Of a stretch of 64,000 nucleotides of DNA, positions 54,984 to 56,643 are shown one piece after another (the stretch's first letter is position 1; every line of letters begins with the position of its first letter). Source of the stretch: an uncultured Thermoprotei archaeon (lineage in GTDB: Archaea; Thermoproteota; Thermoprotei; Thermofilales; B15-G2); NCBI GenBank assembly GCA_965367815.1, contig CBDUKN010000002.1:96001-160000 (forward strand), read 5' to 3'. The translations under genes were made by a program, and so were the position numbers. The notes under the pieces were generated by a model. It did not search any database and was not told where the DNA came from. It saw nothing but the letters and a program-made list of their open reading frames with translations.

Positions 54984-55469
54984 TTATGCTTTTTTGGCCA
55001 TTAAGTAGGCATCTTCTCCATCTAAGTAATAGCCTTTAATCACTTTAACTATTTTATATCCTAGTTTTTTATACAGAGAGATAGCAGGCTTATTAGATAC
55101 TCTCACTTCTAGAAAGTATTCGTCGACATTGTATTCCTTTTTAAGGTTTTCCATAGCCTTTATCATTAAGGATTTACCGATACCTTTTCTTCTAGCGTAA
55201 GGCATAACAGCTATCGACACAATGTGTCCTTTTCTCGCTACTCCTATTCCGAAATTACTTAATCCATGTTCTACTCTACACATAATGTAGCCTACTATTT
55301 CATTATGCATTTCAGCTACTAAGAACGCTTTAGGACAATTGTAGTACTGCATCATGAAGAAGTATGGAGGATAATTTTCGGGCAAGCATTTCCTGTTAAT
55401 CTCGATAACTCTTTCTAGGTCTTCAGGTCTGAACTCTCTTATTATATATTCTTGCTTATTTTCTGTCAT
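54984..55469 (-). CDS. ard1: N-terminal acetyltransferase Ard1 (RimI-like)
   Basis: LPENYP, GYIMCRVE, GHIVSIAV, RRKGIG, LEVRVSN, YYLDGEDA. Confidence 0.93.
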   Translation of the reverse strand: MTENKQEYIIREFRPEDLERVIEINRKCLPENYPPYFFMMQYYNCPKAFLVAEMHNEIVGYIMCRVEHGLSNFGIGVARKGHIVSIAVMPYARRKGIGKSLMIKAMENLKKEYNVDEYFLEVRVSNKPAISLYKKLGYKIVKVIKGYYLDGEDAYLMAKKA

Positions 55470-55474
55470 ATTCG

Positions 55475-56078
55475 CTAAGTTACATATAGTACTCCTAGTT
55501 CTTTAAGCTTATTATACAGCTTCTTGATGGCTATTTCTACTTCCTCTTCCTTCTTTGCTCCAGTACATACACACTTTCCGCTAGAGAAAATTAGAATAAC
55601 TACACGAGGATCATCCATCCTATAGATTAGTCCCGGGAATTGCTCAGGCTCATACATGGAGTTTTCAAGTAAGAATGCTGCTTTTTCTAAGTTGACTTCA
55701 GCGTGAAGATTCGCGCTTGCGACTATATTCTGTATTTTTATTTGGGGCTGGCTAACTATTTCTATACCATGTTCCTTAAGAATCTTTATTATGTTTTTAA
55801 CTGCCTTGTATACCTCGTTTTCGGACTTTGCTCCAGTACATACCATTTTTCCGCTAGAGAAAATTAGAGTCGCAGTCTTAGGCCTACTAATTCTCAGGAC
55901 TAGCCCAGGGAACTCTCGGATCCCGAGGGTTTTAAGCCTCGGGATGTTCCGGATTATACTCCGCGTTAGGTACTCTCGACGCGATTAACTCTAAATCAAG
56001 CCGTTGGTCGAGAGTAACCGATGCAACTACGTTTTCTATACGGAAACTTGGTTCTGAGAACCTAACGACTCTTCTCAT
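55475..56078 (-). CDS. tbp: TATA-box-binding protein, two exons (55946-56078 and 55475-55914), 190 aa after splicing
   Basis: Exon 1 [27 protein letters not shown]; exon 2 [42 protein letters not shown]. Confidence 0.95.
55915..55945 (-). other. 31-nt bulge-helix-bulge mRNA intron in tbp
   Basis: CGGA/TCCG central helix, ACA and AGA bulges, 8-bp TCCCGAGG/CCTCGGGA stem; removal restores frame and Gln codon. Confidence 0.88.
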
Positions 56079-56124
56079 AATATTCCCGTTCTACCTTTAA
56101 AAAGCTTAAATATATATTAATCGG

Positions 56125-56643
56125 TCACTTTCGACTCTTAGACTTCTTTTCCTCCTCTGGAGAAAAGACTATCATAATGAGTAGCAGTATTACTACTAGA
56201 GCATAGACATAAGGATATTTTTCGGCGAACAGTTTAAGTACTCCAAGATAAGGTACGTCCAACATCACTATTCCCTTTACTTGACTTATTGAGACAGGAT
56301 AGTCTGGAATTAGATTAGCGTCTCCTTTAGTTACTAGCTTGTAAACATTACCTTCTCTTTCATAAACTTTTATTATTCTATGAACTGTTGGCTCGCTTCC
56401 AGCACTCCTCTTATATACAATTACTTTTCCTACTTGAAGATCAGAGGAAGATTGAACTCCTACAATTACTATCATGTCTCCAACTTGAAGTGAGGGTATC
56501 ATACTCCAGCTTGAAACTACCGCTAAGGGTATTTCTGTCGACAATATGGCTTTAAATAAGTAGTTTATAGTAATGTAAGCTAGCAGTACTACAACAATAA
56601 TTGTCACTAGTGTCTTTAATTTTCTATCAGATGACTTAGCCAC
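56125..56643 (-). CDS. Signal peptidase I (Sec11/S26B)
   Basis: VSSWSMIP..GD, VHRI, TKGDAN..PD, VPYLG. Confidence 0.92.
   Translation of the reverse strand: MAKSSDRKLKTLVTIIVVVLLAYITINYLFKAILSTEIPLAVVSSWSMIPSLQVGDMIVIVGVQSSSDLQVGKVIVYKRSAGSEPTVHRIIKVYEREGNVYKLVTKGDANLIPDYPVSISQVKGIVMLDVPYLGVLKLFAEKYPYVYALVVILLLIMIVFSPEEEKKSKSRK

Follow-up and report, generated by a model that had tools for sequence, protein, structure and literature searches.

For the crenarchaeal gene cbf5, a bulge-helix-bulge (BHB) intron within the pre-mRNA was reportedly described by Watanabe in 2002, and the intron of the HVO_1309 mRNA of Haloferax volcanii is cut by a homodimer-type endonuclease. The first-pass annotation of the DNA analyzed here named cbf5 as the known mRNA case, and the portions of two later papers that deal with this point agree: in 2009 no gene other than cbf5 had confirmed splicing (PMC2738675), and in 2020 cbf5 was the only mRNA reported besides the 5'-UTR case of that paper itself (PMC7714728). 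Predicted introns in other protein genes, in a rudivirus and in a book chapter on Sulfolobus genomes, are cited in Yokobori 2009 (PMC2738675). As set out there, the cbf5 intron resembles the element that we describe below in its small size (about 20-40 nt), in lying within a coding gene and splitting a codon, in having been lost precisely in some lineages, and in being seen by gene callers as a frameshift or truncation (PMC2738675, passages on the intron). For tRNAs, the pertinent parts of two papers describe non-canonical introns in Thermoproteales and Thermofilum, with relaxed HBh' motifs and two-subunit endonucleases (PMC5829648, PMC2724299). We found no published intron in tbp, the gene for the TATA-binding protein (TBP), in the full-text literature; subscription journals lay largely outside that scope, and an earlier description is possible.

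The DNA analyzed here, referred to as the window, is a stretch of 64,000 nt from an uncultured Thermoprotei archaeon. The tbp gene lies on its minus strand, with exon 1, a 31-nt insert and exon 2 all contained in positions 55475-56078 (Table 1). Exon 1 matched positions 1-36 of the 85 in the Pfam TBP profile (E 5.9e-9), and exon 2 matched the profile in two stretches (E 1.4e-54), which in the genome's own profile matches covered positions 37-84 and 1-85. Removal of the insert gave a 573-nt frame of 190 codons and a stop, encoding a two-repeat TBP of 190 aa. The join reads GAA CAG TTC, and the protein junction is YNPE-QFPGL (the hyphen marks the join). Without removal, the frame ended at a TAA stop after 48 codons (ORF 55932-56078), and the first start codon in exon 2 is Met68. 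Both the 190-aa product and the TAA after 48 codons had been proposed in the first-pass annotation, and translation of the two frames reproduced them. Upstream of the gene, the AT-rich stretch TTAATATATATTTA is a possible candidate for the TATA box of tbp.

Table 1. Coordinates of the tbp gene, its BHB motif and two further BHB inserts of the same genome. Positions are those of the window unless a contig (C) and locus (L) are given.
Feature	Position	Strand	Remarks
AT-rich stretch TTAATATATATTTA	56107..56120	-	~30-40 nt upstream of the tbp ATG; read from sequence
tbp exon 1	55946..56078	-	133 nt: 44 codons and base 1 of the Gln codon
tbp exon 2	55475..55914	-	440 nt including stop; bases 2-3 of the Gln codon, remainder of repeat 1, whole of repeat 2
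BHB intron, 31 nt, AUCCCGAGGCUUAAAACCCUCGGGAUCCGAG	55915..55945	-	same-site inserts of 27-31 nt in 24/30 loci
Central helix, 5' strand, exon CGGA	55948..55951	-	within codons CCG GAA
Central helix, 3' strand, intron UCCG	55917..55920	-	UCUG where the exon has CAGA (G052, G053, G054)
5' bulge ACA	55945..55947	-	predicted cut 55946/55945, from the BHB rule and the junction of intron-free relatives
3' bulge AGA	55914..55916	-	predicted cut 55915/55914, from the BHB rule and the junction of intron-free relatives
Intron stem, 5' arm UCCCGAGG	55937..55944	-	8 bp; stem pairs covary across relatives
Intron stem, 3' arm CCUCGGGA	55921..55928	-	8 bp; stem pairs covary across relatives
Intron loop CUUAAAAC	55929..55936	-	8 nt; contains the in-frame TAA; one A fewer in some populations
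cbf5 BHB insert, 22 nt	C8:79198-79219 (L056:499-520)	+	after base 1 of the catalytic Asp codon
uS5 BHB insert, 24 nt	C8:62590-62613 (L055:591-614)	+	canonical hBHBh'

The only tbp gene very probably carries, in this insert, a genuine BHB intron, which the tRNA-splicing enzymes would have to remove from the pre-mRNA to allow synthesis of full-length TBP. This was also the first-pass reading, and it is supported by the single copy of the gene, the match of the spliced junction to that of an intron-free relative, covariation in the motif, constraint on the neighboring codons, and a stop or frameshift in 24/24 Thermofilales inserts.

The tbp pre-mRNA reads AAU C-CGGA-ACA-UCCCGAGG-CUUAAAAC-CCUCGGGA-UCCG-AGA-GUUC, and the intron reads AUCCCGAGG-CUUAAAAC-CCUCGGGAUCCGAG. 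The layout initially proposed, with a CGGA/UCCG helix, bulges ACA and AGA, an 8-bp stem and excision of 31 nt, proved exact on the minus strand. Two 3-nt bulges lie on opposite strands with a 4-bp helix between them, and the topology of the central helix is that of the tRNA motif, in which the bulge of each strand sits on its 3' side. Removing 55945-55915 corresponds to a cut after base 2 of each bulge. Because an A follows both cuts, shifting both sites one base 3' would give an identical product. Cleavage and ligation of the tbp pre-mRNA, and the positions of the cuts, are predictions from sequence. Outside the bulges, the helix between the exons is reduced to one C-G pair, present in 28/29 sequences, with mismatches beyond it. 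With only this one conserved pair outside, the motif is of the relaxed HBh' form and not the canonical hBHBh'. No Rfam family or tRNA matched over the tbp region, and no second copy of the 31-nt intron was found elsewhere in the genome. The minimum-energy fold contained the central helix in 9/24 homologues, and a 71-nt fold of the window's own sequence had a GGAAC/GUUCC pairing in its place. Energy minimisation alone does not reliably pick out the central helix.

We analyzed covariation in two sets of sequences, one of 24 from Thermofilales and one of 29 that adds G051-G054 and a second intron of G054. In the set of 24, 99.4% of cells were paired and 8/9 stem pairs changed on both sides; the values for the set of 29 were 97.5% and 9/9. 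Among the 29 sequences, none of 500 shuffles reached the observed covariation score, and slid registers were 6-51% paired. The bulges were 3 nt in all 29 aligned sequences, and the inner helix was 8-9 bp across homologues, with 9/9 pairs covarying. The central helix was paired in 29/29, with a GC to AU change in three and a G-U pair in one (G051). The three are G052, G053 and G054, where CGGA/UCCG has changed to CAGA/UCUG by compensatory substitution and the Pro codon is CCA. By the pairing and shuffle tests on the 29 sequences, the BHB structure is more than chance. The codons 5' of the insert are also constrained. All 24 intron-bearing genes have CCG GAA for Pro-Glu at this position, compared with 0/6 intron-free repeat-1 sites and 2/30 repeat-2 sites, the latter using eight different codon pairs. 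These exon bases are thus held by a constraint at the RNA level.

The first-pass annotation had proposed aligning tbp from relatives. We searched the DNA of 41 genomes of the order, including the genome of the window; 35 gave matches, and 30 loci were obtained. An insert was present at exactly this codon in 24 of the 30 and absent from six (G001, G007, G014, G024, G028 and G030). In G012, both TBP repeats are in one frame of 191 aa, and in six other genomes (G008, G018, G025, G026, G027 and G039) a single frame of 188-221 aa contains two full-length matches. The tally for Thermofilales is 24 genomes with the insert and 13 without it, among 37 readable genomes (excluding G021, G032, G034 and G036). 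Insert lengths in the 24 genomes were 27 nt (n = 1), 28 nt (n = 4), 29 nt (n = 12), 30 nt (n = 3) and 31 nt (n = 4). Every one of the 24 either breaks the frame or brings a stop codon into it; this is true even of the four with a length divisible by three, and the insert is therefore never translated as a protein loop. The BHB cut rule gives the same junction for all lengths from 27 to 31 nt, and the rule also works for the introns in repeat 2.

A natural control is G001, of the same genus as the window, which has an intron-free TBP of 190 aa that is 96% identical to the spliced product (tblastn) and reads YNPEQFPGLVLR across the junction. This protein is identical to the public record RLE81741.1. 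Its junction residues, YNPEQFPGL, are those of the window's spliced junction, letter for letter. The E-Q-F join predicted in the first pass is thus the one found in G001, and it is consistent with the five other intron-free loci.

Carriers are also found beyond the genomes of the order that we searched. Scanning 185,579 species genomes for the insert pattern gave 18 further stretches, labeled Thermofilaceae (9), Thermofilum (1), Infirmifilum (1), Thermoproteales (4), Thermoprotei (1), Thermoproteota (1) and 'archaeon' (1). These labels place the clade of carriers in the Thermofilum group. A survey of the class, covering 98 genomes at least 80% complete, found split tbp in 3/3 genomes of family f11 and 1/1 of f12 (together G051-G054); genomes of f9, f10, f13, f14 and f15 had two TBP matches each and no split tbp. 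G054, from f12, has two tbp introns (L062:1570-1644), one in repeat 1 at the window's site and one of 27 nt at the homologous site in repeat 2. The second has the junction YEPE-QFPGL, and the stem sequences of the two introns are unrelated. As a separate observation, the TBP repeats of G074 (f14, 81% complete; C10:67439-67953) occupy two distinct open frames (102 and 107 aa), with the break falling between the repeats and not at the window's site.

In a sample of 401 genomes from the phylum, we followed 10 genomes outside the class that had an odd number of matches, setting aside G325 (three matches) and genomes with even counts; carriers of a tbp intron beyond those found may exist. None of our conclusions draws on G406. 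In two of the 10 genomes, G204 and G274 (f42, in another class; L102 and L103), repeat 2 of tbp is interrupted by a BHB insert of 28 nt. It follows base 1 of the Phe codon, three bases downstream of the homologous site, and the BHB rule restores EQFPG. The motif reads AGCA AUA AGUUUGCG..CGCAAAUU UGCU AAU, and G274 has an A-G mismatch at one of the four pairs of the central helix. At the site in repeat 1, the intron is common to most families of Thermofilales and to two other families of the class. From this family-by-family distribution, the tbp intron appears to be old and to have been lost precisely several times. The precise losses in close relatives (G001, G012) argue that it is dispensable.

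The genome of the window has the enzymes that such an intron would require. It encodes two proteins of the EndA family (PF01974), scoring 102.4 and 46 bits. The first also scores 117.6 bits on TIGR00324 (cut-off 59.6) and, judged by these profiles, is clearly the predicted catalytic protein. The second falls below all cut-offs; its best likenesses are to N-terminal halves and beta-subunit models, so that it weakly resembles a structural half or beta subunit. RtcB is encoded by one gene (609.9 bits). A remark in the first-pass annotation that the weak outer helix suggests an endonuclease of relaxed specificity fits the single C-G outer pair and the presence of two EndA-family proteins. ARAGORN predicted introns in 19/44 tRNAs, one of them an obvious artefact. 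With about 19/44 tRNAs interrupted, the splicing enzymes are essential regardless of tbp.

We scanned the genome for other genes split by BHB motifs, as had been suggested at the outset. A loose pass gave 2870 hits, which were reduced to 548 candidates, mostly at gene junctions, and a strict filter left 25. Nine of these were translated, and four of the nine were checked against Pfam. The scan recovered tbp, together with cbf5 and uS5 (Pfam continuity). The position of the cbf5 insert is that of the published crenarchaeal cbf5 intron, as given in the relevant part of PMC2738675. At least 12 genomes of the order have similar inserts in cbf5, about 18-28 nt long, whose stems covary. In Thermofilum itself, the survey of 2009 found no cbf5 intron (PMC2738675). 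The uS5 motif reads CGCCAG ACGG AUA GCCCGC UUUAA GCGGGC CCGU AAG CUGGCG, with a 6-bp outer helix, CGCCAG/CUGGCG. The spliced uS5 frame reads ...VQRQTD-AGEISRF... (the hyphen again marks the join), as in intron-free homologues, and exon 2 begins at position 17 of the Pfam Ribosomal_S5 profile. The uS5 insert of G001 is 23 nt with a different loop, and the insert was absent from seven other genomes of the order that were read. We came across no published intron in uS5 in the literature examined for tbp.

Three other candidates came to our attention. Two, at C2:67655-67686 and C5:44259-44289, were dropped after inspection by eye, as an apparent antisense frame and an apparent gene junction, respectively. 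The third, at C3:128946-128976 on the plus strand (L057:647-677), is a BHB-like element of 31 nt with a 10-bp stem and a UUCG loop, located upstream of a 527-codon membrane-protein ORF. Its putative exon 1 had no Pfam match, and G001 gave no match to the region. The element may be an intron, lying either in the 5' UTR or close to the gene start, or it may have arisen by chance.

One alternative keeps the intron and gives it a function: the rate of the endonuclease and ligase would set the output of TBP, tying transcription initiation to tRNA-processing capacity. The retention of the intron across a clade at the level of an order speaks for such a regulatory valve, as does the truncated product of the unspliced message for all 24 Thermofilales inserts. 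The introns in repeat 2, which G054 has at the corresponding motif and the distant genomes G204 and G274 three bases downstream, point in the same direction, and the enzymes are essential anyway given the introns in about 19/44 tRNAs. However, the intron has been lost precisely, with no obvious consequence, in G001 (of the window's genus), in G012 (of the genus Thermofilum) and in several other genera, and its recurrence may simply reflect how easily a BHB can be built on coding GGAAC..GTTCC. A valve coupling transcription to RNA-processing capacity is speculation, possible in principle, and we consider it unlikely. We hold equally modest expectations for a related proposal, in which the PEQFPG motif would be a recurrent and possibly selected landing site for introns, and the tbp intron a checkpoint tying TBP to the endonuclease and RtcB. 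If there were such a checkpoint, archaea would have their own equivalent of HAC1/XBP1 splicing, and, with uS5 and cbf5, it would mean that core genes of transcription, translation and RNA modification are gated by one RNA-processing pathway.

A second alternative leaves the mRNA uncut. The ribosome might skip the 31 nt, as in bypass of the phage T4 gene 60 type, or shift frame. The stop codon soon after the break and the stable hairpin in the gap would suit such an event. The gene 60 hop also has a stop codon and a hairpin, and this type of bypass is characterized by matching take-off and landing codons. At the tbp insert there is no matching landing codon that would restore PEQF: a hop from GAA to the GAG before TTC drops the conserved Gln and gives PEF, whereas every intron-free homologue has PEQF or a variant of the same length. 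The CGGA/UCCG covariation (including CAGA/UCUG) and the pair of 3-nt bulges are marks of an endonuclease substrate and not of a hop, and inserts of 27-31 nt all yield the same junction by the BHB rule. We regard recoding of an uncut mRNA as highly improbable.

Third, the insertion could be disabling, the gene being in decay or split, with TBP supplied in some other way or as two polypeptides. Gene callers do see a broken gene. Public gene calls for the window's gene consist of a 123-aa ORF starting at Met68 alone. The exon-2 ORF of G017 (L009:1456-2066) is, letter for letter, ABL77703.1 / A1RWX3, the 142-aa 'TATA binding protein' of Thermofilum pendens Hrk 5 (GenBank/UniProt), and the RefSeq TBP of T. 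pendens is 149 aa, with its start inside the insert. These T. pendens records lack most of repeat 1 because the 29-nt insert is unannotated. Public data for other carriers contain truncated TBP calls of 72-137 aa, the 137-aa ORF of f42 being present on at least 30 public contigs; the TBP of Thermofilum adornatum is intact, at 189 aa. A homologue search with the G001 TBP, in which 8000 full-length TBPs were listed, was uninformative on how intron-bearing genes are annotated.

Several observations weigh against a gene in decay. The first-pass annotation had raised the case of an intact tbp paralog; the genome, 99.4% complete at 2.45 Mb in 37 contigs, contains one TBP locus, and no second one was found in it. 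Both exons are conserved as protein across the order, with tblastn identity of about 55-80% per exon, and 28 genomes keep the insert at the same codon, with compensatory changes. A TBP made as two polypeptides would be missing residues 45-67, which form core strands, as exon 2 has no start before residue 68. We judge decay or a split protein to be exceedingly improbable.

The insert is present in the DNA of independent sequencing runs. Of 23 runs listed for this stretch, none is recorded as RNA, and we compared positions 55400-56200 with contigs from four DNA runs belonging to four studies. The insert was present in all four; three runs had one contig across the whole of 55400-56200, and the contig of the fourth covered 55768-56200. 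No contig among the four runs joined the exons directly, and the prospect, entertained in the first pass, of reads lacking the 31 nt finds no counterpart in these contigs. An assembly or sequencing artefact in this genome is refuted by the contigs of these four runs, none of which joins across, and with homologous inserts in 27 other genomes its likelihood is negligible. A self-splicing group I or group II intron, with its ribozyme core of roughly 200 nt or more, and an intein, with its in-frame protein-splicing domain, were rejected from the 31-nt length, the in-frame stop and the lack of an Rfam match. At position 55930, within the loop's run of A residues, the contigs of runs X2, X7 and X8 were one base shorter than the window and that of X6 had the window's length. 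The shorter form of the tbp intron is 30 nt and retains the in-frame TAA. This difference between the contigs of different runs indicates that introns of 30 and 31 nt coexist in nature. A 1-nt indel in the loop is tolerable solely in untranslated sequence, and it thus counts in favor of an intron.

We return to the BHB intron as the preferred reading. In the pre-mRNA, the exon CGGA would pair with the intron UCCG, flanked by the two 3-nt bulges, and the 8-bp intron hairpin would close the structure. The tRNA-splicing endonuclease would cut inside both bulges, and RtcB would ligate the exons and probably also close the 31-nt intron into a circle. The ligated mRNA, ...CCG GAA CAG TTC..., would encode the normal 190-aa TBP, and the unspliced mRNA only a 48-residue fragment.

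TBP and uS5 would extend the set of archaeal protein-coding genes with BHB introns, which has so far consisted of cbf5 and one 5'-UTR case according to the relevant part of PMC7714728. Fragmentary TBP calls (72-137 aa, and 142/149 aa in T. pendens) imply that surveys of archaeal transcription factors miscount. Why archaea keep introns in mRNAs becomes testable in a cultured organism, as the type species Thermofilum pendens has the homologous insert of 29 nt, and pairs of close relatives, one carrying the intron and the other lacking it, provide natural controls. Both the overlap of codons with an RNA helix and the reuse of a single motif, in two repeats as well as in two classes, are relevant to the way such introns are gained.

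Among described systems, the HVO_1309 mRNA of Haloferax volcanii (Schwarz 2020) is like tbp in being an mRNA substrate of the tRNA-splicing endonuclease; its intron, in contrast, lies in the 5' UTR, leaves the reading frame uninterrupted and has a canonical motif (PMC7714728, in the parts describing this mRNA). The non-canonical tRNA introns of Thermoproteales and Thermofilum belong to the same motif class as the tbp intron, and the enzymes are presumably shared, by analogy with the systems treated in portions of PMC5829648 and PMC2724299. The tbp intron differs from them in that its substrate is an mRNA and its central helix is made of codons, so that constraints on protein and on RNA overlap. 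A more distant likeness is to HAC1/XBP1, as outlined in sections of PMC13149111. There too, a non-spliceosomal endonuclease (IRE1) cleaves a transcription factor's mRNA at small stem-loops, a tRNA ligase or RtcB rejoins the ends, and the active factor comes from the spliced form alone. However, the endonuclease is unrelated to that proposed for tbp, and HAC1/XBP1 splicing is a eukaryotic, stress-induced switch (PMC13149111, same sections). Compared with cbf5, the host gene of the tbp intron encodes a general transcription factor, and the clade that carries it consists of Thermofilales and their neighbors. The tbp site also differs from that of cbf5 in lying within a duplicated motif, of which repeat 1, repeat 2 or both are occupied, depending on the lineage.
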